Source: an uncultured bacterium (GTDB lineage: Bacteria > CSSED10-310 > CAZUFC01). From it: a stretch of 64,000 bases of DNA. Positions 37,513-64,000 of the stretch are shown here, piece after piece. The stretch covers positions 10,385 through 74,384 of the forward strand of contig CAZUFC010000025.1 in the NCBI GenBank assembly GCA_964619725.1. Direction: 5' to 3'. Every line of letters begins with the position of its first letter. Position 1 is the stretch's first letter. The notes below the pieces were generated by a model, which was not told where the DNA came from, did not search any database, and saw only the letters and a program-made list of their open reading frames with translations. A program made the translations under genes and the position numbers.

Positions 37513-40500
37513 CTATTCCGTCCCGGTGATATCCGCGCAATGGAAAGTAAAAGCGCCGTTCCCTGTCTTGAAGAATGCAATATCGTCAACCAGATTGGTC
37601 AGTACAAGACGGCTTTTCGACCGGGTGTCCTCCCGGTTCTGAATAACCTTGAATTGGAGAACGGCGATATTTTGATTTGCATGCGTTGGATTCACAGGTT
37701 CCAGGTTGAAAGCGCCGATTCTCAGGTTTCCGGGAGTCAGTTCATTGTATTCGAAGAAACAAAAATGTTGAAGGTCGGCGCCTTTCCGGCACTTCATCAG
37801 TTCAAGCTTATCACGGTCAAATTGAAGGTCCAGTCCGATGGAATAAACTGATTGACCGGCGCTGTTCAAAGTGATGAAACATTCGATTACGTCGTCTGTG
37901 CAGCCCCACGAATCGGATATTTCTACGCTGCCCATTCCGTCGGCAGATGACCGGGTTGCATGATCAGTCATGCCGTAAGAGCTTTTGAAGGTCTGAACGG
38001 GATCAACGCAACTGCAATCGAGATGCACGTAGTTTTCCAGTATGCATTGAGCGTCCGCCGGGGTGACCTGATCGTATCCGTTACAGTCAGCCGAGCATAC
38101 TTCTTCATACGTGGGATAGGGAATGTATTCCAGGTAGATGGCGAAGCTCATCAGTCCGTCGGAAGGAGAGATTTGTCCGTTGTTGTCGACGTCTCCGTCA
38201 TTGCGGCATGATGAAGGACAAGGCTCGCCTTCAGGCACGGAGAGCCAGGGTTCATAAAGGACGTTTCCCCATACTTCATCGCCGCTTCCTATTCCCCAGC
38301 CGGAAGGACCGTCGGGAGCTCCCCAATAATTGAAGTCAGCGCGAAATGCTGCGTCGGAGGCATTATCGTCTACCAGCAATCCGTATTCCGAATTATTTTG
38401 TATATTATTGTAAGCGGCGTAACCTCCCGGAACACCATAAGGACCGCCGCATGCTCCGCCCCCTCCGAAAATGAAGATGCCGCGTGCGTTATCTGTAAAA
38501 TCGTTGCACATGCAGGTTAAGTTAACGATATCCCAGAGTCTCAGCGCTTGCGCCTGTAGGCTTTCGCCGGACGCAACGTATGTGAAAAGGTTATCCTGAA
38601 TATCGACGGCTACCGCATGATTCAGTTCCAATCCGGCCTGGTGATTGCCCGGATAGCCCTGGTTCCCGCCTATATGACTCCAGGTATTGTCGGATACCTC
38701 AACCATTTCCGTGGGATAAGAATGATTTCCCCTGATCGCTGTGGAGCCGTTGCAATGGTGTATATAATTTGATAAGAAGCTGACGGAAACGAGGGGCAAT
38801 TCATTTTCACCTTCCAGTCCGGGCGCTGAGACATCCATATCCAGTACGACGGGACCCAGGATATTTTTGAATTCCGAGTTCAGGACGGAGAAGTTCTGTC
38901 CGAGTTTGTTTCCGGGAATGCCGTTGCGGTTTTCTGTATTTTGGCCGTCAAAGGTGCAATGGTCTATGGTTAAATCATAAATCGCTCCGGAATTATTCAT
39001 GGCGACGAGAGCCTGTCCGCCGGCATCGCCTTTTACGACGAGATATTCCAGCGTCAAGCCGCTGATTGCATTAACATTCTGGAAGAGAATACCGCCTGTG
39101 ATGACGGGGGGATATTCGATTTCACCGGAGAGAGTCAAGCCGTCTTTATAGAATAAGGCGTCGAATTCGACTGTTTCGGGATATGTCCCGGCATGAATGT
39201 GAACGATGCTGCCGGGTGAGGTTACATCAACGCCGTCCTGGATATTGTCGAAAGCATCGAATCCGAAGACATGTCCGTCGACTATATCTCCGGGTTGAGA
39301 ACCCGCCCAGTCGTCGTCTACCCAGACTTCTGTGGGGAGCGGCGTAGGCGATGGAGTGCTCGTTGGCGAATGAGTCGGAGTTGGCGAGCGTGTGGGAGTT
39401 TTAGTCACGGTAAGGGTCGGTGAAAGCGTTACGGTGGGAGAGCGCGTAGGGGTTCTGGTGACGGTAGCGGTAGGCGAAAGCGTTCGGGTCGGGGACCTGG
39501 TGGGCGTTCTTGTCACGGTGGGAGTAGGCGAAAGCGTTCGAGTCGGAGTTCGGGTCGGTGTGGAACTGGGCGCCGGGGTCGGGGTTATGGTGAAAGTGGC
39601 CGTGGGCGAAGAAGCAGGCTCCTGGGTCGGCGTAGCGATGGGACCCGTCAGCCAGTTAGTGTAATTAACATCCTCAGAAACGTCGTCCCCGGGATCGTTG
39701 TCATTCATTGAATTTACGCAATCGTCCGTTTCATCGACATCATCATCCGGGCCCGCTCCGTCTCCCCACCAGTTGTACCGGGCATTGATACAGGTCGCCG
39801 AATCCGTATTGATCGCTCCATAAATGTCGTTGCCCTCGATATTGTTGCCGTTTGACGCTGAGCCCCCGATAACCGGAAGGGAACCGTTTTCTGCCATGAC
39901 GCCGCGGGGTTGGTTTTCAATCACGCACGCCCGTACGGCGGGATTCGATCCGGCGCCGTAACAATATATCCCGGCATAGGTATTGTCGTGAATATGACAG
40001 GAATAAATGCTGGGCGATGATCCGTTCAAACATTGGATGCCTATTCCATTGCCGTTTTTGATTTCAGTGTGTCTGATCGCAGGGGACGCTGCATCGCAGG
40101 TTATTGATGAGTAAATTGCAGCGTGATAACCCGCATACTCCATTACCAGGTTCCTTATGACGCAATTCGCATCAGAAGCGGAGTCGTTGAAGTAAATTCC
40201 GTACCATTCTCCGGACTCAGAAGGCGGATAATAATCGTGATTATACGTGAATGTGACCTTGTGCGCGGGCGATCCATTGATCATAAGGCCGCCTTGTTCA
40301 GAGGAGGTCGGACCGCCGATTTCCAATTGAGTATACCTCTGCCACTGGGCTTCCACACCGGGTTCCACGTTCAGGATAGAGGTGGCTTTTGCCGTGCCGC
40401 GAACCAGGACGTGACCGACTATCAGGTAAGGAATGGAGTGATAATGCCATGTGCAGTGGTTATTCAGCGTATCGCCGTAAACGTATATTCTTTGATATTT

Positions 40501-43500
40501 ATTGCCGTTGAATGTATTTCCGTAAATCTTATCGAGATGACGAGCGCTGCAAACCAGCGGGTCGCTGTCGTTTTCAACAAAAGAGTTGTTGTTGACTGTC
40601 GGACTCGATTCCGTATCCTCAATATAAAGGCCGTGACTGCCGTTCAGACGCAGAGCGCTGTTCGATACGCCGGGCGTACCCGCTCCTGTAATGTAAACGC
40701 CGTATGTACCGTTGTGTTCGATTGTACATTGGTCTATCTGGGGAGAAGAGATATCGCTCTGAATGCCGTGAGTACCGTTATGATTGCAGTTGCAATGAGT
40801 GACCGCAGGATTAGCGTCAAGATAGCAGTAGAGACCGATGGAGCTGCTGTATCTGATTTCGGTGTAAGTTATTAAAGGAGAACTTGAATTGCAGTAAACC
40901 GATGTTCCCCAGCTATATCCCGCATCTTCGACTATGCAGTGAGTGAGTCTGGAAATGCCGTCCGCAGCCTGATCAGCGAAATAGAGACCGTACCAGAATC
41001 CAGGTGATGAGACGCCGCCTGTGTCGCCGGTGAAAACTATTTTATTGCCCGCAGTTCCGACTGCCTTGAGCGCACCTGTTTTCAAGGGATCGGCATCATC
41101 TCCCACATAAACCGCTAATTGAGGTCTCATCAGAACTTCGACTCCGGGTTCTACGCTGAGCGTCGTAACGTTATCGCTGCCGTCCCGGCCTTCAATGAAC
41201 AAGTGTCCCGTGAGGAGGTAGGGAATTCCCGGGTCTTCCCAACGAGCATCCTGGCTGATGGTATCGCCGTAAACATAGAACTGCTGATAAAAATTATTCT
41301 GATAGGAGTTGTTCTGGAATCCGTTTACGTGACGGGCATAAGCGACGACGGGATGATTGTCGTTGTCGTCGAAAAGGCAACCGGTGACTAACGGCATACA
41401 TGTCGTATCCTGGACCCAGACGCCGTGGTCATCGTTTTCGATGAAATCGCATCCGGTAATCTGAGGGCAGCAGGAATCCTTGAGAGTAAGTCCGCTGGGA
41501 TAATTATCGCTTATAAGACAAGAATCGATTACGGGCGAAGAATTCAATTCAAGATAGACCCCATAATTATCATTTGAGCTGAATTCACATAAAGTAACTT
41601 CAGGAGAAGCCCCATCGTAGCAGTAGAGTCCTATTCCCGAAGAGAACTTCGATATAACCCGGCTTAGGAAAGGCGCTTTATGATTGCAATAAATGTTTGT
41701 TCCCCAACTGTAACCTCCGGAATCAATATGACAGTGTTCGAGTCTGCAGGCAGGTTCGTGTGCGTAATAAGCAAAATAAAGTCCGTACCAATATCCGGGA
41801 TTCGGTTGTCCAGCATCCGAAGTGAAGCAAACAGGATCGTTTTCCGTTCCGACGGCATGCAACCCGCCGGGCAGCTCTTCGTCGGCATCATCGCCGATCA
41901 TGATGGTCGTATGAACTGACATCATCATCGTAACGCCGGGTTCAAGCGTCAGAGTCGCTGTATTATCGGCGCCGTCCTGGCCTGTGACGTACAGATGGCC
42001 CATGATCAAATAGGGAATACCGTCATTGACCCAGGTGGAGTCCTGGGAGAGAGTGTCGCCGGCGACGTATATCTGCTGATAGAGGTTATCCGTATAGGAA
42101 TTGCCGGTGAAATAGCGGATGTGTCTGGCTGCTGCGTCTATGGGATAACTGTCGTTGTCTATGAAGTCGCAACCGGTTATCGCAGGCGAGCAATCGACTG
42201 AGTTTACGGATAATCCGCCGGCTCCGTTTTCGATGAAAGAGCAACCGGAAAAGGACGGGGTGCACAGGTCCGTCATCCTGACGCCGCAGGAACCGTTGCC
42301 GGCAATAATGCTGCCTGATATCTGTCCTGAGCCTTCGTCGTCGAATTCCATGCCATAGGTTCCATTGTCCTGAAATTCACAATCGTCTATATCTGGAGCG
42401 GCCTCATCGTATACATACAAGCCGATGCCTGACGAATATCGGCAAACCGTGTTGGAAATTTCGGGAGAGCATGTGTCGAGATATATATTCGTCCCGTAAG
42501 AATAGCCCCCGTATTCGACTATGCAATGGTCCAGTAAAGAAGCGTCGGAGGCGTAGTTATCGAAATAAATTCCGAACCAGGCGCCGGGAGATTCAGAATC
42601 GGCCGTAAATTTAATCCGGCCTTCTCCCGTCTGACCGTCCGCGACCAGTTTGCCGGGATAAGAAGCGTTTGTCGCGTGACCGATGAACAACCCGATATTA
42701 TTGGCGAATCTGAGCTCCACACCCGGATCGACGGTGAGTGTCGTCATGTTGTCCCCTCCATGTCGTCCCTGAACATAAAGGTGTCCGGCGATATAGTAGG
42801 GTAATTCATTATCACTCCAGGTTCCGTCTAAAGAAATAGTATCTCCGCTGACATAAATGGCTTCATATCCTGAACGAATTTGAGTGAAAGAGCTTCCCGT
42901 GACGTTGGGAACTTCATGAGGGTGTTCGATGACCAGGGGCCATCCGTTAAGATATTGGAAATCGTTTCCGTTTAAAACGGGGAAACATGTGGATTCGATA
43001 TATACTCCAGATTCGCTGTCTGCGAAAAGGGTATTGGAAATTGTTGGTGATGAGTTCAGTTCACAATAGAGAGTATTGCTGCCGCAGTTCGCGATGATGC
43101 AGTTGTTGAATTCAGGAGCTGCGCCGTCGTAGCAGTAAATTCCATAGTTAGAGGCCATATCGATAACGCAGGAGGAAAAGGAGGGTGATGATGCTTCGCA
43201 GTAAATGTTGGCTGAGGTGTATGCGCCGGCGTATTCTATAGTGCAGTAATTCATGTAACCGTTGTCGTTGGCCGATGGCCGGAAATGGACTCCGGCGTAA
43301 TAGCCGACGGACTTGTCTTTTTCATCCGATGTGAAGAGTATGCCGTTGTTTGAATTTCCGGCGGCGTTCAGCCTGCCCATGTCATTAGCGCCGGAACCCC
43401 CGATGTAGAGTCTCTTACCCGATGCGAATTGCACTTTGACTCCGGCCTGGATGGTCAATGTCGCGTTATTTCTGACGGTAACGTCGTCGACAACCCAGTA

Positions 43501-46500
43501 AATGCCGCTGCAGGAAGGAGAGCTGAGTCCCCAGGTTGTATTGGAGGTTATTTCTCCGGAAACGCTGTATGGAGTGCATGTGAAATTTTGAGTAGGCGTT
43601 CGCGTGGGTGTGGGTGAGTGTGTGTATGTTCTGGTAGGAGTGAATGTGCGAGTGGGCGTATGCGTAGGCGAACAGGTTGCTGTGTTCGCTGCCGGAGGAG
43701 TAGGAGTTCGCGTGGGCGATAATGTCGGTGAGGAAGTGGCTGTCGGGCTTCTGGTCGGCGTCAGGGTCGGCGTGCGCGTAGCCGTATTCGCCGGCGCCTG
43801 GGTCGGCGTATAGTTGGCTGATGTCATCCAGTTGGAATAATCCACGTCCTCGCTGACGGGATCGCCGGCATTATTGTCGTGTGCTCCGTTCATGCAACCG
43901 TCTTCATCGTCTATATCGTCGTCAGGGCCGCCCCCGTGACCCCACCAGTTGTATCGCGCATTCACGCAGGTTGTGGAATCATGATTATATACTCCATATG
44001 TCGTCTGGTTGATGAAGCTGTTGGCGTTTTCAGGAGAACCTCCGATTACCGGTAATGAACCGGCGGCGACGTATACGCCGTATAATTGCGTATCAAAACG
44101 GCATTTGCGGATGACCGGATCGGTTCCTGTATGGTGACAATATATTCCGTCGCTGGTGTTGTTATGCATCCGGCACGAGAATATCGTCGGGTCAGCCCCT
44201 TGCAGACAGTGAATCCCGCTGCCGTAACAGTGGTGTATTTCACAATGGTCCAGAGTCGGCGCTGAAGCGCTGATGTATATGCCGCTCGCATCGCTGTATC
44301 CGGCATATTCAATCTCTGCGTTCTTCATTACGCAATAATCATCGTCGGCATAATCGTTGAAATATATGCCGTACCATTCTCCATTGGGACTCGGCGTATA
44401 ATCCTTGTTATAGGTAAATTCCACTTTATCGCTCACCGTTCCGTTGACCATCAGGCCGCCCTTGTTCAGGACGCTCGTCGAACCGATATCAAGATAGGTG
44501 TAGCGCTCCCACTGCATTATGACCCCGGGATCGATGGTCAATACCGCCGTATTCCCGTCCGTCCCCTTTACGATGACGTGACCGGACATCAGATACGGGA
44601 TGGTCTGTCGCGGCCATACTGTGCTCTCCGTCAACGTATCGCCGGATACTTCTATTTTCTGAATTGAGTTGCCGGAAAAAGCGTTATTGGATATCCCGGA
44701 CAAATGCCTGGCGTAACATCCGATGGGATAGTAACCGTTTGAATTGATCGAGTTTTTCGTTATCAGCGGATTCGTGTCGGTCGTATCGACGAAAATTCCA
44801 TATGAAAGATTTGAGTTTATCGTGCAGGAGTGAATCGAAGGGGATGAGCCCGACGAGACTTGAATGCCGCAATTACTGTTGTATCTTATTGTGTTGAAAG
44901 AGACACTCGGCGAGGAAACGGAACAACTGAGCCCGTTATATGAGTTATGATGAATATTGGAGTCCACCATTGTTGGGGCGGCGCCTGCTGTGCAGTATAT
45001 GCCGTCGCCGTTTCCATATCTGACTTCTGTGCCCTGGATAAGCGGAGAGCTGCCGTAACAGTATATCTGCGTGCCCCAGGAGTAACCGGCATATTCGATC
45101 GTGCACTGATCGAGTTTGCATAAGAAATCGTTCGAGTAGACGCCGAAATATATGCCGTACCAGAATCCCGGTCCGGGCGAGTCTGAATCTGCAGTAAAAA
45201 TGACTTTATCGCTGGATAGACCTTCGACGGACAGCGCCCCCGGAACGTCAGGATCGGTATCGCTTGCTATAGATATGTAGGTTTGAGGACTCATCAGCAG
45301 CGTGACGCCTTGTTTTAAGGTCAGCGTCGCCGTATCGTCCGGACCTGATTGTCCCTCGACAATGATGCTTCCAGTAATTTTATAGGGGATGCCGGGATCG
45401 ATCCATACGCTGTCCCTGTCAATCGTGTCGCCGTACACGTAAAATTCCTGTATGCCGTTATTCACGTAAGTATTGCCGGTGAATCCGCCGGCCTGCCCGG
45501 CATGCACCACCGCCGGATAATCGTCGTTGCCGTTAAAAGTGCAGCTCATTACTTCGGGCCGGCTCGACGCGTCCGAACAATGGATTCCATGGTAGTAGTT
45601 GTAGTTAAGCGAACAGGAAAAGATCAGGGGGGTTGAATCGGTCGATGCGATTACGCCGATATTGTCGTTGTAGGAAATATCAGAGGAGATAATGATCGGC
45701 GATGATTCATAATCCATGTTGATTCCTTCTGTCGCGTTGTATTTGAATGAGCAGGCTATGACGAAGGGATCGATGCTGCGGGTGAAATATACGCCGATTC
45801 CTGAAGACCAGCTTGACTCGGTGTATGTTATGACCGGAGCCGCGCTGTTGCAATAAATGTTCGTCCCCCAACTGTATCCGGCGTATTTCACTATGCAATG
45901 TGTCAGTTCGCAGAGGGAATCATCGGAATAGTCTGAAAAATAAATGCCGTACCAATAACCGGGACCTGGAGAGTCCGTGTCGGGAATGAAGCTGATTTTC
46001 TCAGCGCTGTTGCCGACCGCGCTTAAACCTCCCGGCAGATCAGGATCGGTATCGGAGCCGACTGAAATATAGGTGCGGTAGGCCATTTCCAGGGTCGTTC
46101 CCGGCATGAGCGTCAAAGTCGTCACGCCGTCCGGTCCGTCCTGCCCCATAACGTTTAATGAGCCGGTCATGTAATAAGGAACCGGTTCATCTTCCCACGT
46201 CGCATCACGGGTTATGGTGTCTTCCATCACATAAATGAATTGATACGCGTTCGAAGCATAGGAATTGCCTTTCATTTTATCGATTTGTCCTGCATAAGCG
46301 ACTAAAGGGTAATCATCGCTGTACCGGATAGTACAATCGTATACCGACGGCGAACAATCAGCGTCCTCGACATACACTCCGCAGTAGTTGCGGTCCAGAG
46401 TATTCGCCAGCAGCACGGGAGAGCTCTCATTTAATATGTAGACTCCGTATGATCCGTTGTCGGAGATCGTACTTCCGGATATGATCGGAGACGAGCCTGC

Positions 46501-47793
46501 TCCTATGTATGCCCCGTAGCTCGGATTGTCGGTCAATTCGCAATTCGTAACCGTCGGAGAGGAACCGGAGCTGCACTCCAGCCCGATAGCGTTTCCATAC
46601 CGTGAAATGACGTTGGCGATACTCGGGGATGAAGAGATAAGCGTTATATTTGAATATCCCGCATAACCCGCATATTCCAGGGTGCAGTATTCAAGGATGG
46701 AAGCATCGTCGGAATAATCGGAAAAATAGAGGCACATCCAGTTATAACCGGCGCTCCATTGAGTAAAGGTGATGCGCTGGGAACTCGTTCCCTGGGCTAT
46801 CAGGCGTCCCGGAAGATTGGGATTTGTATCTGAGCCGATGGTTATGCAGACAGTATAGTCCAGTTTTACCGTTACGCCTGGTTCAAGTCGCCAGGTCGTT
46901 ACGCCGTCAGGACCGTCCTGACCCATCACTTCAACATGATTCGAAATATAATAGGGAATGCCCTGTTCATCCCAGGCGGCATCCCTGTCGATAAGCCCTC
47001 CTGTAACATGAATGCCGTTATAATCCGCCGGAGTCGAAATAAAAGCATTGTCAAAGATGGAGCCGATTTTGTCCGCGGACGCATAAACAGGCCACCAGCC
47101 ATTTGAGCGAAAAGTACTGTTTTTGACGACTGGATAACAATCGGAGTCGATATAAATGCCGCCGCCGGCGTTGTTGCGAATTTCCGTTCCTGATACGACT
47201 GGCGATGAATGATCTTCAAGGTATATCCCCCAGTCGGCATTGTAATTTGAATGACAATTGATTATCTCTGGAAAGGCATAGCGATAACAATAAATTCCAT
47301 AACCCGATGAATGAATGAAATGGCATTCCGTGAAACTCGGCGATGAAGAATAACAATATACGCTGACTCCGTTCGAATACCCCGCATAGTCCACCGTGCA
47401 ATAATTCATAAAACTCGTATCATCCGCCGCATCCTCAAAAGTTATCCCGGGAAAATATCCCGGTGATACGGTTCCGTTCGGCCTGAAAGTTATCGGATTC
47501 GCCGATGTCCCCTGGGCTTTCAGTTTTCCCCTGTCTGATTCGGTCGAACCTCCGATGTAAAGACCATAACCATAATCATGACGTACGGTGACTCCTCCTT
47601 CAATGGTTAATGTCGCTCCATCCCTTACCGTAACGTGGTCCGTCAGAATATACACGCCCTGAGGGTCTGGAGAAGTCCTGCCCCAGGTCGTATCAACGGT
47701 TATTTCGCCCCAGACGTCCGTCGCTGCATTTGCTGAAGCGGCCCAGACCGAACCGAACAGAAACATTAAAAAAATCGCCTTTTTAACGTTCAT
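37513..47793 (-). CDS. Giant (3426 aa) secreted right-handed beta-helix repeat protein with P/T linkers and dockerin-like and cohesin-like C-terminal domains
   Basis: ATG 47793 after GAGGAGG, signal peptide [23 protein letters not shown]. Many NxxxGIY...SSP repeats; two units of about 1300 aa; [14 protein letters not shown]...[13 protein letters not shown]; cohesin-like tail. Confidence 0.88.
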
Positions 47794-48203
47794 AAAATTC
47801 CTCCTCATAAGCGTCGCGCCGGATGACACGTTTTTTTCTGAATCATGATCGTCATCAAGCTTTCGATATTATGTAAACATTTTATGCCCTGTCTGATTCA
47901 AAAGCAAGTCTTTTTAGCCGATTAGCGAAAAAAACGCGACGAGGGCTTCGATGCCTTAAAAAGGTTTTTCAATCGTTGTGCTTGCTTTAAGACGCCTTCT
48001 TTTGATAGTGTTTTATATGATGTTCCTGATCGTAACGCCGGCGAAACGGGAGTGAATCCGTGATCCCGGCAGATGTCTAAACGGCTGATGTTTCAGGACT
48101 GTTAAGGAGCATTTTATTTCGACGGTTAAGCCATATTAAGAGGACTGCTTATTGAAGCGCGCAGGGCGCATAATGGAATAAACGCCCTGGAAAGGAGAGC
48201 AAA

Positions 48204-60101: not shown

Positions 60102-60425
60102 CTATAGAATCTCTTTGTCATTCCTTTTTTCAATATCTTTCCTGATGGACTGGGGGGCCCGCGCGCCGTCAAAAAGTCCAAAAACAAGGATATTGTTTCC
60201 CTCTAATTTGTAGTAGACTGCGTACGGGAATCGTCTAAGTAAACTCCTTCGAAATTGGCCATGCGCTTTTGAGTAAATCAACGGATTTCTCGCAATATTG
60301 CCTGCGCATGCATAAAACATCCTTAAGAATTCATCTCCAAGTCCACTTGCTTTCTCTTCATACCATCTGTATCCTGCCGCCGCATCATCCTCCACTTCAG
60401 GAAGAAAATGAAGGATATAGCTCAT
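60102..60425 (-). CDS. RelE/ParE-family type II toxin
   Basis: WYEE...GLG.EF...RR.LLRRFPY pattern; overlaps the antitoxin stop. Confidence 0.88.
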   Translation of the reverse strand: MSYILHFLPEVEDDAAAGYRWYEEKASGLGDEFLRMFYACAGNIARNPLIYSKAHGQFRRSLLRRFPYAVYYKLEGNNILVFGLFDGARAPQSIRKDIEKRNDKEIL

Positions 60426-60643
60426 TTACGTTTCTCCACTCTTCCTTGCAATTCTTTGAGAGACAAAAGGTTTCCCGGACTAGAATTATATTTTTTCAGT
60501 CTTCTGTCCAATTCCTTTTTATGGCTTTGCGGGACAGGCACGCTTGATTCTTCTCTTACAATGCTGTCCCATAAATCCTCTATAAGAAGTATCTTTTCGG
60601 GAATAGTTAATTCATCAATTCCATTGATTTCTGATACGCGCAC
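60422..60643 (-). CDS. Addiction-module antitoxin
   Basis: L...EKILLIEDLWDSI...ELDRR pattern; GTG start; directly upstream of the toxin. Confidence 0.85.
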   Translation of the reverse strand: MRVSEINGIDELTIPEKILLIEDLWDSIVREESSVPVPQSHKKELDRRLKKYNSSPGNLLSLKELQGRVEKRK

Positions 60644-60848: not shown

Positions 60849-61047
60849 TTTTTGTCCATAAACGGTGAATTTTTCCAATACTGCGTCAGGCTGCGGATTT
60901 GCTCAGTCAACGTATAAGCGACGCCCCTGCCTCGCAAATCTTTACCATCCTTGTCTTAAGAAAAATTCGCTCGTTTATGGATCAAAAACCGCAGTGACTG
61001 TCCAGCATTAAATTTTGAATCGACAATCGAGTTTATGGACAGTCACT
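60849..61047. repeat. Palindromic, MITE/REP-like non-coding element
   Basis: Imperfect inverted repeat 60849-60874/60961-60988 and perfect 12-bp inverted repeat AGTGACTGTCCA(60993-61004)/TGGACAGTCACT(61036-61047). Confidence 0.55.
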
Positions 61048-61663: not shown

Positions 61664-63730
61664 TTGAACCGTGATCCGTTTTCATCAAAAAAATTCACAA
61701 TTCTTTTCAGGCACATTGTCAGGAGCTCAGAAATTAAGGAATTTATTTCACCGAAGTGGATACCTTTATTATGGAAGGAACTGCGAAAGATACAGGATAA
61801 AAGAAAGCAGGAGCTGACGAAAATCGGGGATGTTTTCGGCGACCCTTATATGCTGTCGAAATATTACGTGGAACCGAAATGTCAGCAGCTCAATCCGGCC
61901 GATTATGATGAAGATGAACCTTCCTTGCCTGTGCGCAGCCCGGTATTCGAGACCATAAACGAGTTTTTCAACAAGGAATTCAAAACGCCTGATCCCGGCG
62001 GCAAAAACCAGATGTTCGTGTTGTCTGATGCCGGCATGGGGAAGACATCGCTTCTGATGATGATAAAGATGATGCATCTGATGTCGTTCTGGCCGTCCGG
62101 TTATGAATGCATACTTTTGAAACTGGGACCGGAGACGATCGGGGAAATAAATGAAATAACCGAACGGGCAAAAACGGTTCTGCTGCTGGATGCCCTGGAT
62201 GAGGACCCGACGGCCTGGGGAAAAGTTGAGGAACGACTCATTGAGCTTCTCACCGAGACATCCAATTTCCGGCGGGTCATCATTTCGTGCCGCACTCAGT
62301 TTTTTCCGGAAAAGGGCAAGGACCCGTTCTGCCGGCCGGGATGGGTGGAAGTCGGCGGGTCGCTATGTCCCATGATTTTTATGTCATTATTCGATGATGC
62401 GCAGGTGGAAAAATATTTAAAAAAGCGTTTTCCCAGACGATGGAAAGACCTTCTGCTGCGGCGAGACAACCTGTCGAAAACCCGGGCCGAAGAACTGATC
62501 GGTAAAATGGCTTCGCTCAGATCACGTCCGCTGTTGCTGGCCTATATTGATGACATTTTGGATGCCGGGATAGAAAATTTGAACGAATATTCCGTTTATA
62601 ATTCGCTGGTCGAATCCTGGCTGCTGCGGGAAGAAAGAAAATCACGGAAAATGAAGATAGGCTCCCGGCCTTCAAAAGAATCGCTGCTGGAAGCCTGCAT
62701 GATTATCGCGGAAAAAATGCAGTCTGACGGAACCAGGTTCATCAGGGAAAAACAGTTGAAAGAAATGATGGAAACCAGGAGAGAGCTGAAACAATTGGAA
62801 ATGATAGACGTCGGCGGCCGATCGCTTCTTAACAGAAATTCCGACGGCGATTTCCGTTTTTCTCACTACAGCATCCAGGAATTCATGATAGTAAGGGGCG
62901 CGGTCGAAGGACGATTAAGCCGGAACGGAAAGAAATTAAGGACCACGGATCAGATGTTGGATTTTCTTTTGTGCGCGCCGGGAGATGATATTTTTGATTT
63001 CTTTGATATTGGACAGATGGGCAGAAAGAAGTTTATAAACCGAAACGTGAAGATGATCAAAATAAAGGGCGGGAGTTTCATCATGGGCGATAAAGGTGAT
63101 GAAAAAATATCCGTCTCCGTTGATGACTTTTTGATGGCTGAGTTTCCGGTGACTCAACTGATTTACCGGTTGGTTACAGGTGAGAATCCCAGTGGTTTCA
63201 AGGGTAAATTAAGGCCTGTTGAAAATGTTTCATGGGATGATGCCGTTCGATTCTGCAATATGTTGTCAGAATTAATGGACCTTAAACCCGTCTATGAAAT
63301 TAAAGGAAGGGATGTGAAATGGATTGAGGAAGCTGACGGTTTTCGGTTGCCCACGGAAGCTGAATGGCAATACGCCTGTCAGGCGGGAAGCAAACGCGAC
63401 CGGTATGGAAAGCTTGATGATATTGCCTGGTATAGCGAAAATTCGAACAAGCAAACTCATGCTGTGGGAAAGAAAAAATCGAACGATTACGGGCTTTATG
63501 ACATGCTGGGAAACGTTTATGAATGGTGTTGGGATTGGTACGGCAAGCTTACTGCTGTGAGTGACAACAGGAATCCGAAAGGTCCGGAAACGGGCTCTCT
63601 CCGGGTGATCCGCGGCGGCGCCTGGCTCGGCGTCGCTCTTGACTGCCGTTGTTCCTATCGCTTCGTCTTCAGCGCTCCGTCCGACCGCGGTGATGGCCTG
63701 GGCTTTCGCCTTTCCAGGTCGTTACCCTGA
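61664..63730 (+). CDS. NACHT/STAND NTPase fused to a C-terminal FGE-sulfatase (CLec-fold) domain; probable DGR target
   Basis: Walker A SDAGMGKT, Walker B LLLDALDE, ISCR, RPLLL, FRFSHYSIQEF. FGE motifs PVENVSWDDA, RLPTEAEW, YGLYDMLGNVYEW, RVIRGGAW...GFRL. The TTG start is uncertain. Confidence 0.88.
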   Translation: MNRDPFSSKKFTILFRHIVRSSEIKEFISPKWIPLLWKELRKIQDKRKQELTKIGDVFGDPYMLSKYYVEPKCQQLNPADYDEDEPSLPVRSPVFETINEFFNKEFKTPDPGGKNQMFVLSDAGMGKTSLLMMIKMMHLMSFWPSGYECILLKLGPETIGEINEITERAKTVLLLDALDEDPTAWGKVEERLIELLTETSNFRRVIISCRTQFFPEKGKDPFCRPGWVEVGGSLCPMIFMSLFDDAQVEKYLKKRFPRRWKDLLLRRDNLSKTRAEELIGKMASLRSRPLLLAYIDDILDAGIENLNEYSVYNSLVESWLLREERKSRKMKIGSRPSKESLLEACMIIAEKMQSDGTRFIREKQLKEMMETRRELKQLEMIDVGGRSLLNRNSDGDFRFSHYSIQEFMIVRGAVEGRLSRNGKKLRTTDQMLDFLLCAPGDDIFDFFDIGQMGRKKFINRNVKMIKIKGGSFIMGDKGDEKISVSVDDFLMAEFPVTQLIYRLVTGENPSGFKGKLRPVENVSWDDAVRFCNMLSELMDLKPVYEIKGRDVKWIEEADGFRLPTEAEWQYACQAGSKRDRYGKLDDIAWYSENSNKQTHAVGKKKSNDYGLYDMLGNVYEWCWDWYGKLTAVSDNRNPKGPETGSLRVIRGGAWLGVALDCRCSYRFVFSAPSDRGDGLGFRLSRSLP
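63593..63730 (+). other. Putative DGR variable region (VR)
   Basis: Only 9 A in 138 nt within an otherwise A-rich gene. Variable-position codons are NNC/NNT, in the RGG.W...GFR segment. Confidence 0.7.
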
Positions 63731-63907
63731 GCCCTTTTACCCTTTTACACTTTGCAAATATTGAATTGATTTTTCCGAGCGGAGTGGAGGGAGAGAAAGA
63801 GCGGCGTAGCGAAGCCGCCGTTCCGAAACGACCGGAACGGAGCGAGGCCGCCGCTGTTCCGCTTTTATATTGATTCTTTGCGTTTATTTTGATTGTGACG
63901 AAGTTCA

Positions 63908-64000
63908 TTACTTTACACGCGGATATCCTGCTATATTGATTTCCTGGCGCTGATCAAAAATGGCCATGTCAGGGTTACAATTTCTCAGTTTGAATCCTTC
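63908..64000 (-). CDS. Possible 3' end of a gene entering from the right edge
   Basis: Open minus frame EGFKLRNCNPDMAIFDQRQEINIAGYPRVK* reaching the window edge; too short to classify. Confidence 0.3.
   Translation of the reverse strand, partial: EGFKLRNCNPDMAIFDQRQEINIAGYPRVK

Follow-up and report, generated by a model that had tools for sequence, protein, structure and literature searches.

The window analysed here, a stretch of 64,000 nucleotides from the contig that we call C25 in the genome of an uncultured bacterium, contains near its end a gene (61664–63730, + strand) that encodes a protein of 688 residues. We conclude with considerable confidence that this gene specifies a cytoplasmic NLR-like protein, composed of a NACHT-like STAND NTPase and a non-catalytic domain of the formylglycine-generating enzyme (FGE)/C-type-lectin (CLec) fold, and that its last ∼40 codons are the variable repeat (VR) of a diversity-generating retroelement (DGR) located on another contig, C280, of the same genome. 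The analysis shows an adenine-specific pair of template repeat (TR) and VR, intact reading frames for a reverse transcriptase (RT), an Avd protein and an HRDC protein, a total of three VRs and, for each of the two domains of the target protein, its fold.

A variable repeat with an adenine-specific template

The region of the target gene holds a single long open reading frame (ORF), that of 61664–63730 (+), which begins with TTG. The database gene call starts 62 codons later and gives 626 residues; we favour the longer, TTG-started form because conservation among homologues begins at about residue 27. An earlier note on this DNA, made from the sequence alone, had remarked on an abrupt fall in adenine from the A-rich body of the gene to its 3′ end, and the counts bear this out: the final 45 codons and stop (63593–63730, 138 nt) comprise 9 A, 49 C, 42 G and 38 T (6.5% A), as against 574 adenines in the 2067 nt of the full gene (27.8%). 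Over 138-nt stretches taken across the 64-kb window in steps of 10 nt, the mean A fraction was 0.255 (standard deviation 0.051); the minimum was 0.058, at 63591, with the six lowest stretches confined to 63571–63621. The adenine depletion in the gene tail is the most extreme of the window.

A DNA search of the organism's own assembly (9.17 Mb in 344 contigs, 90.9% complete, 6.5% contamination) with positions 63480–63760 recovered three near-copies at 84–85% identity, two on contig C280 and one on contig C324. One of the C280 copies (C280:367–491, − strand) is adenine-rich, with 26 A in 125 nt, and constitutes the TR. Its counterpart in the window, the VR, occupies 63593–63717 (+ strand), 125 nt that correspond to codons 644–685 of 688, with the variable residues lying between 646 and 678. 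The two sequences differ at 19 positions, all 19 of which are adenines in the TR, while none of the 99 non-adenine positions is changed; the near-copy differing only at template adenines, for which the earlier note had recommended a search, is thus present in the same assembly. The chance that all 19 differences would fall on the 26 adenine sites among 125 is P = 4.9e-17. Template adenines are replaced in the window by T (8 sites), G (8 sites) or C (3 sites), and 7 of the 26 are retained. The remaining near-copies are also VRs, with 19 of 20 mismatches to the TR located at A in C280:2520–2644 and 17 of 19 in C324:549–673. When every adenine of the TR was allowed to be any base, the resulting pattern had just two matches in the genome without further substitution, to the window VR and to the TR, and only four with up to eight substitutions.

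Read in frame, the TR has 18 adenine-containing codons (six AAC and one AAT, together with GAC, GAT, ATC, CAT, TAT and ACC codons), from which ∼10^14.9 peptides are possible between residues 646 and 678. All of the codons that the earlier note had singled out in the gene tail are present as written. Its guesses as to which of these stand at template asparagine positions were largely right: CTC GGC GTC lies on template AAC AAC GAC, TTC GTC TTC AGC on ATC GAC ATC AAC, and GGT GAT GGC on AAT GAT AAC. The codons assigned to the invariant scaffold (CGG GTG, CGC GGC GGC, TGG and GGC TTT CGC) are free of adenine in the template as well.

The retroelement cassette on contig C280

Both the template and a reverse transcriptase had been predicted to lie outside the window, and both are found on C280, a contig of 4,491 nt. 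The order on its minus strand is a cis target gene (C280:2507–4489, cut off by the contig end), an HRDC gene (C280:1835–2335, 166 aa), avd (C280:1501–1842, 113 aa), the RT gene (C280:476–1504, 342 aa) and the TR, which starts 13 nt ahead of the RT stop codon and so overlaps the 3′ end of the RT gene. The RT, Avd and HRDC reading frames are intact. Profile searches gave 63.5 bits for the RT (Pfam RVT_1, cut-off 29.6), 73.7 and 107.6 bits for Avd (Pfam bAvd, cut-off 40, and NCBIfam NF033474 DivGenRetAVD, cut-off 80), and 64.4 bits for the HRDC protein (Pfam HRDC, cut-off 23.8); the near-copy of the gene tail therefore adjoins the two genes, RT and avd, that had been expected beside it. The translated RT contains YMDD and IGNLTSQ, the latter belonging to the [LIV]GxxxSQ type of motif that marks DGR RTs, and the nearest database RTs are at most 58% identical to it. 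Rfam reported no RNA family on C280 or C324.

Wu et al. (PMC5758913) report HRDC genes in 14 of 372 DGRs, about half of these together with avd; they designate the avd-RT-TR order as architecture B2 and the HRDC types as architecture C, and describe non-adjacent and remote targets in non-phage DGRs. Because HRDC genes, the avd-RT-TR order and remote targets have all been reported there, we regard the C280 cassette as a known though uncommon architecture.

Architecture of the target protein

The NACHT-like NTPase module of the window protein, with its helical/winged-helix extension, spans approximately residues 110–440 (61991–62983, + strand), on the evidence of Foldseek and of sub-cut-off Pfam matches. 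The Walker A motif or P-loop, GMGKTS (62033–62050, +; residues 124–129), is invariant in 26 of 26 aligned family members, and within the Walker B region LLLDALDED (62180–62206, +; residues 173–181) residues L173–L178, E180 and D181 are invariant in the same alignment, as are, entirely or nearly so, SCRTQFFPE and an N-terminal YYVEPKCQxxNPAD motif. An AlphaFold2 model calculated on these 26 members has a mean pLDDT of 75.7 and a pTM of 0.72. Foldseek matched the NTPase module to rabbit NOD2 (5irm, E 4.7e-11) and to NLRP3, NLRP9 and NLRC4 (E 5e-11 to 1e-8), with a probability of 1.00 over ∼400–470 columns; the nearest named Atlas clusters of the module, taken as a lead only, are nSTAND/NACHT.

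Residues 462–683 (63047–63712, +) form an FGE-sulfatase/CLec-fold domain (Pfam PF03781, E 1.6e-43), in agreement with the earlier note. Its closest solved relative is TvpA (2y3c), which was the best Foldseek match (E 7.7e-15, 37% identity) and which, in a sequence search of the PDB with residues 454–688, scored E 9e-41 versus 1e-18 for human FGE, in an alignment that spans the VR. When the domain is aligned to human FGE (2aft/2aii), Cys341 pairs with Cys661 and Cys336 pairs with Gly656, leaving the catalytic cysteine pair incomplete; Gly656 is encoded by a variable codon, for which the template has AAC. Since a glycine at a variable codon stands opposite Cys336, we assign the domain to the binding, non-catalytic type.

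Only ∼110 residues precede the P-loop, and the AlphaFold2 model places two helices there. No hydrophobic N-terminus is seen in the sequence, and the protein is therefore predicted to be cytoplasmic. As it has no recognisable effector domain, any output would have to proceed via a partner.

Sibling targets and a shared 3′ flank

The earlier note had suggested looking for sibling genes with the same 3′ tail, and two exist: the cis target on C280 and a third target gene on C324 (C324:536–2518). Their proteins are 79% identical to each other, and are 35% identical to the window protein over the FGE domain and 22% identical to it over the NTPase region. Because the two are only 22% identical to the window protein over that region, one DGR serves two NTPase lineages.

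The nucleotide block common to the window gene and its siblings runs from ∼63575 to 63754, ∼37 nt past the end of the homology to the TR. The VR and TR are identical up to a terminal CCAG and then diverge, while the three VRs remain alike for ∼35 nt more in a sequence that is absent from the TR. This VR-specific 3′ flank (63718–63754, +) contains the last codons, the stop and a C/T-rich element, and is a candidate target address element resembling the initiation of mutagenic homing (IMH) site. Relative to the siblings it has two single-nucleotide indels (one extra and one missing base in the window), so that the gene ends in S-L-P-stop versus S-Y-P-stop; since these frame-shifting indels alter the peptide while the nucleotides are kept, the flank is conserved as nucleotides and not as peptide. 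A 17-mer core of the flank occurs eight times in the genome at up to two mismatches, and five of the eight occurrences directly follow the stop codon of an FGE-domain gene (on C25, C280, C324, C153 and C168). In Contendobacter, Competibacteraceae and Methylococcaceae, the VRs belonging to related DGRs are succeeded by a similar C/T-rich sequence, after which come a G+C hairpin and a T-run; no such flank with hairpin and T-run was found after the VRs of two further DGRs of this genome, on contigs C9 and C26.

Beyond the flank, ∼80 nt past the window VR, lies a G+C-rich inverted repeat (63797–63858, +) that could form a hairpin or cruciform or act as a terminator; a simple terminator scan returned no + strand site after the target gene. 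The siblings have a strong hairpin of ∼100 nt located ∼40 nt downstream (z −11.2 and −10.4). For the phage BPP-1 DGR, the IMH and a nearby hairpin/cruciform have been reported as required and sufficient to address a heterologous gene, and the hairpins of phage DGRs as lying 4–34 bp from the VR (PMC3240598), a distance that the window repeat exceeds. By analogy, the 3′ flank may be the counterpart of the BPP-1 addressing element. We tentatively suggest, as a possibility with the odds somewhat against it, that the ∼35-nt C/T-rich stretch at 63718–63754, rather than a close hairpin, is a clade-specific DNA or RNA address tag that lets one RT and TR write unrelated sensor genes in trans, and that the window gene is a natural case of VR-cassette capture. 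If so, such capture would enlarge a repertoire of hypervariable NLR-like proteins by moving a module of ∼160 nt. The flank or the NTPase family may already be listed in the supplementary figures of Doré et al. 2024 (PMC10907252).

Three more FGE-domain genes of the genome have a VR-like 3′ end (C153:3780–4010, C168:580–810 and C141:13867–14080), at 75–83% identity and with differences at all four bases; those on C153 and C168 share the C/T-rich 3′ flank of the window gene. The assembly yielded no adenine-specific template for these three ends, and that template may be unassembled or lost.

Variation in metagenomes

Five sequencing runs hold part of the stretch, and the Logan contigs of four of them, all from one microbial-mat study, were compared; such contigs drop rare variants. 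The window VR is unchanged in run X1, in a contig of 2,102 nt that covers 62900–63808 with no differences, and in run X2, in a contig that covers 63594–63746, again with none. Across the four runs, every differing letter listed at 63626–63696 corresponds to the sibling VR of C324 or of C280. The lack of any change at the 99 non-adenine positions of the window VR, versus one and two such changes in the siblings, suggests recent rewriting. Contig breaks near the start of the VR (the end of a record at 63589 in run X4, and the contig of 63594–63746 in X2) were not taken as evidence, the depth there being ∼3.

The NTPase family as a recurrent target

A database search with residues 1–460 of the window protein found no fewer than 1,061 relatives at E ≤ 0.001 among the 8,000 candidates that were scored; apart from the protein itself, the best of these are 56–57% identical. 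The C-terminus of these relatives is either an FGE domain or a set of pentapeptide repeats, and the sensor domain is accordingly exchangeable, which suggests sensor-domain swapping within one STAND family. The ∼430-residue NTPase module with a pentapeptide-repeat C-terminus occurs in many bacteria, including Aeromonas, Colwellia, Paraglaciecola and Hydrogenophaga. Homologues are labelled in databases as ‘formylglycine-generating enzyme family protein’ or ‘SUMF1/EgtB/PvdO family’. In 40 related genomes, all of the same phylum or farther, every non-self match begins at query residue 445 or later, that is, in the FGE domain.

A survey of one-genome-per-species contigs gave 200 pattern matches, 106 of which encode a relative, and 80 loci were kept. 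To judge by record titles, they include Candidatus Electronema, Electrothrix, Thiosymbion, Competibacter/Contendobacter, Methylococcaceae, Desulfobacterales, Aminicenantes, Verrucomicrobiota and Acidobacteriota. Avd and/or an RT is encoded right downstream of the homologue at 8 of the 80 loci, and A-biased repeat pairs are present at 4; in 3 of these (Contendobacter, Methylococcaceae and Acidobacteriota) the 3′ end of the homologue itself is the VR, with mismatches at A in 17 of 20 cases (locus L035), 19 of 21 (L037) and 13 of 14 (L091). These DGR counts are lower bounds, as many loci are short and remote templates are invisible in them. These sequence comparisons mark the NTPase family, which is widespread and unnamed, as one that DGRs target repeatedly in different phyla. 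The largest cluster of neighbouring genes (15 loci) comprises, by its representative, further FGE-domain genes such as second DGR targets; the representatives of five other clusters that were tested had no Pfam match.

At one of these loci, in an Acidobacteriota MAG (metagenome-assembled genome), the second target of the related DGR (L091:6325–10329, −) is a protein of 1,334 residues with TIR, metallophosphatase, NACHT and FGE domains, which has the full effector-NTPase-sensor layout of an NLR with a DGR-written tip.

Genomic surroundings and further retroelements

The neighbours of the target gene in the window are genes for propionyl-CoA carboxylase and for methylmalonyl-CoA mutase and epimerase, together with a two-gene pair on the opposite strand, just upstream (60102–60643, −). 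The pair consists of a 73-residue ‘putative addiction module component’ (PF09720, E 9e-16) and an ORF of 107 residues that it overlaps; the latter has no Pfam match and is presumably the toxin partner. Elsewhere in the window a single ORF of 3,438 residues occupies 37513–47829 (−). Two families of dispersed repeats of ∼55 nt, represented in the window at 63946–64000 and 60973–61027, are spread across the genome with many copies at contig ends, and the word depth in run X1 jumps to ∼400 at 63936–64000. These repeats are probably elements resembling miniature inverted-repeat transposable elements or repetitive extragenic palindromes, which fragment the assembly.

The same genome contains at least two further DGRs, each next to an RT of ∼335 residues. 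In the DGR at C9:105606–107126, the TR and VR are 128 nt long and 13 of their 15 mismatches lie at A; in that at C26:30955–33906, a single TR is paired with two VRs of 137 nt, and every mismatch (18 of 18 and 19 of 19) is at A. Downstream of the C26 VRs is a GC hairpin, its loop GCGAAGC, that closely resembles the one found after the Contendobacter VRs.

A hairpin also starts the region just 3′ of each TR in seven DGRs from different phyla, namely that of C280 (locus L009; the region lies at C280:215–366, −), those of loci L035, L037, L044 and L091, and those of C9 and C26, and a CCGTTCC(G/A)G-like motif follows ∼70–110 nt further on; the region has no Rfam match. The spacer/priming RNA of BPP-1 is its possible counterpart. 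A consensus structure was attempted and dropped, four aligned sequences, three of them close kin, being too few.

Proposed mechanism and alternative explanations

By analogy with DGRs that have been studied, the TR would be transcribed and then copied into cDNA by the RT together with Avd, with misreading of adenines, and the mutagenised cDNA would replace the VR of the three genes, with both the G+C-rich 3′ end, which is identical in VR and TR, and the VR-specific 3′ flank acting as guides. The element would be active at present, and the 18 variable codons (∼10^15 peptides) would form a ligand-binding surface. Binding of a ligand is predicted to drive NTP-dependent oligomerisation and a downstream response, for instance in defence or in self/non-self recognition.

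Several observations weigh against this account. The label ‘NACHT’ given by the earlier note agrees with the fold (NOD2, NLRP3, NLRC4) and with the Walker A and B motifs, but not with the profile scores, which are under the cut-off for both Pfam NACHT (17.3 bits, cut-off 26.7) and nSTAND3 (18.0 bits, cut-off 27.2). The confidence of the AlphaFold2 model is below 50 at residues 619–652 and 662–674, which make up much of the VR. An N-terminal effector domain was not found by Pfam, NCBIfam or PADLOC, and PADLOC gave no match for the target proteins as a whole. The neighbours in the window offer no effector partner, an antitoxin-family member being the only component of the opposite-strand pair identified by Pfam, and no conserved partner gene emerges near the 80 loci, where the top neighbour cluster recurs in only 15. 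The 148-nt stretch with the inverted repeat folds weakly (minimum free energy −24.9 kcal/mol, z −1.85, with 10 of 200 shuffles folding as well). No VR variants beyond the three assembled VRs are present in the contigs of the four runs, which hide minority variants. Finally, the RT and TR are on another contig than the window target, in a MAG with an estimated 6.5% contamination; no overlap joining C25 to C280 was found, the final ∼55 nt of C25 are a dispersed repeat that matches more than 40 other contigs at 90–100%, and C280 and C324 end inside target genes.

The separation of the contigs raises the question of whether C280 and C324 derive from another mat organism, with the window gene merely sharing a horizontally spread VR cassette. 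Such a binning artefact would be in keeping with an assembly of 344 contigs with the contamination given above, with the shortness of C280 and C324 (4.5 and 2.5 kb), and with somewhat different depths in run X4 (2.8–3 versus 5.5). However, all 99 non-adenine positions are identical over 125 nt, the word depths of the three VR contigs in run X1 are similar (8 versus 7.2 and 5.5), and the composition of C280 and C324 is typical of the bin, with tetranucleotide correlations to the genome pool of 0.91 and 0.87 (the median of 77 contigs of 2–6 kb is 0.87). The first ∼55 nt of C324 moreover belong to a dispersed repeat family with more than 200 genomic copies, including one in the window. We therefore consider a foreign origin of these contigs very improbable. 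A stronger rival, although in our view still an unlikely one, is that a DGR wrote the tail in the past and the gene is no longer diversified, so that its VR is now a fixed allele. This would account for the identical VR in the contigs of X1 and X2, for the absence of new variants from the contigs of any of the four runs, and for an inverted repeat much weaker than those of the siblings; yet contigs conceal minority variants, the RT, Avd and HRDC frames are intact, the VR-specific 3′ flank has been kept, and the absence of non-adenine substitutions from the window VR, compared with one and two in the siblings, argues for recent rewriting.

That the protein is an ordinary formylglycine-generating enzyme with a low-A tail arising by compositional accident is hardly credible: its Pfam FGE-sulfatase match is strong and its homologues bear that name in databases, but an adenine-specific template exists, a glycine at a variable codon takes the place of catalytic Cys336, the closest solved relative is the non-enzymatic TvpA, and the domain is fused to an NTPase. 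It is easier to imagine, if still doubtful, that the protein works as we propose while serving kin or self/non-self recognition, or the sensing of environmental ligands, and not anti-phage immunity. The window has no defence-island context and no PADLOC match, homologues are known, by record title, from cable bacteria, from ectosymbionts (Thiosymbion) and from bacteria that form mats or flocs, and Doré et al. (PMC10907252), who propose antigen sensing for such proteins and call it untested, raise kin recognition as an alternative. On the other side, related STAND NTPases (Avs and bacterial NACHT proteins) are experimentally antiviral, as cited in the same paper, and the related locus L091 has the TIR-metallophosphatase-NACHT-FGE target described above.

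The locus provides a clean and apparently intact example of a bacterial NLR-like protein with a predicted sensor tip of ∼10^15 possible forms. Every part has been identified, from the template, RT, Avd and HRDC to the cis target and the two further targets. The result can improve the annotation of genes labelled ‘formylglycine-generating enzymes’ in cable bacteria, Competibacteraceae, Methylococcaceae and Acidobacteriota, and adds a data point to the idea that bacteria forming mats and filaments maintain hypervariable sensors resembling those of innate immunity. The 3′ flank is a candidate addressing element for trans targets that could be used for targeted diversification in vivo.

Comparison with known systems

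CLec domains fused to STAND NTPases (nSTAND1 or NACHT) and diversified by DGRs have been described from multicellular bacteria by Doré et al. 2024 (PMC10907252), who report that these DGRs often have two targets, some of them lacking a recognised effector. In its architecture the window system is like these, namely DGR 3 and DGR 6 of Thiohalocapsa PB-PSB1 (clade 5D in that paper), in having a central STAND NTPase and a C-terminal FGE/CLec domain with the VR, several targets per DGR and a cellular, non-phage context; some of their targets, like that of the window, lack a recognised N-terminal effector. Unlike the clade 5D systems, to the extent that they are described there, a single DGR here serves two unrelated NTPase lineages, and the window target is on another contig among housekeeping neighbours rather than in a conflict-system neighbourhood.

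TvpA of Treponema denticola (2y3c) is the best match of the window C-terminal domain in both sequence and fold, the VR included, and the Treponema DGR, too, combines an HRDC accessory gene with remote targets (PMC5758913). By its solved chain, TvpA consists of a CLec domain alone (∼290 residues), in front of which the window protein adds an NTPase module of ∼450 residues.

The BPP-1 DGR (mtd-avd-TR-brt) shares with the present system the adenine-specific transfer from TR to VR, an Avd protein and a CLec-fold gene with the VR at its 3′ end, beyond which come a VR-specific sequence and an inverted repeat, the latter weak in the window (PMC3240598). It differs in gene order, the TR here following the RT (HRDC-avd-RT-TR), in that the targets are cellular NTPases and not a phage tail fibre, and in that the VR is followed by a C/T-rich repeat and then a more distant hairpin, rather than by the hairpin with a 4-nt loop within 4–34 bp described for phage DGRs.

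Like Avs, bacterial NACHT proteins, NOD2, NLRP3 and NLRC4, the window protein has a NACHT-fold NTPase module followed by a C-terminal sensor domain. No N-terminal effector and no PADLOC match were found for it, in which it differs from these proteins, and in place of their TPR, LRR or WD40 repeats it carries a hypermutable CLec sensor. The DGR-diversified STAND-CLec kind of protein has already been published (Doré et al. 2024, PMC10907252), and the present locus is a well-supported further example that leaves the published picture unchanged.

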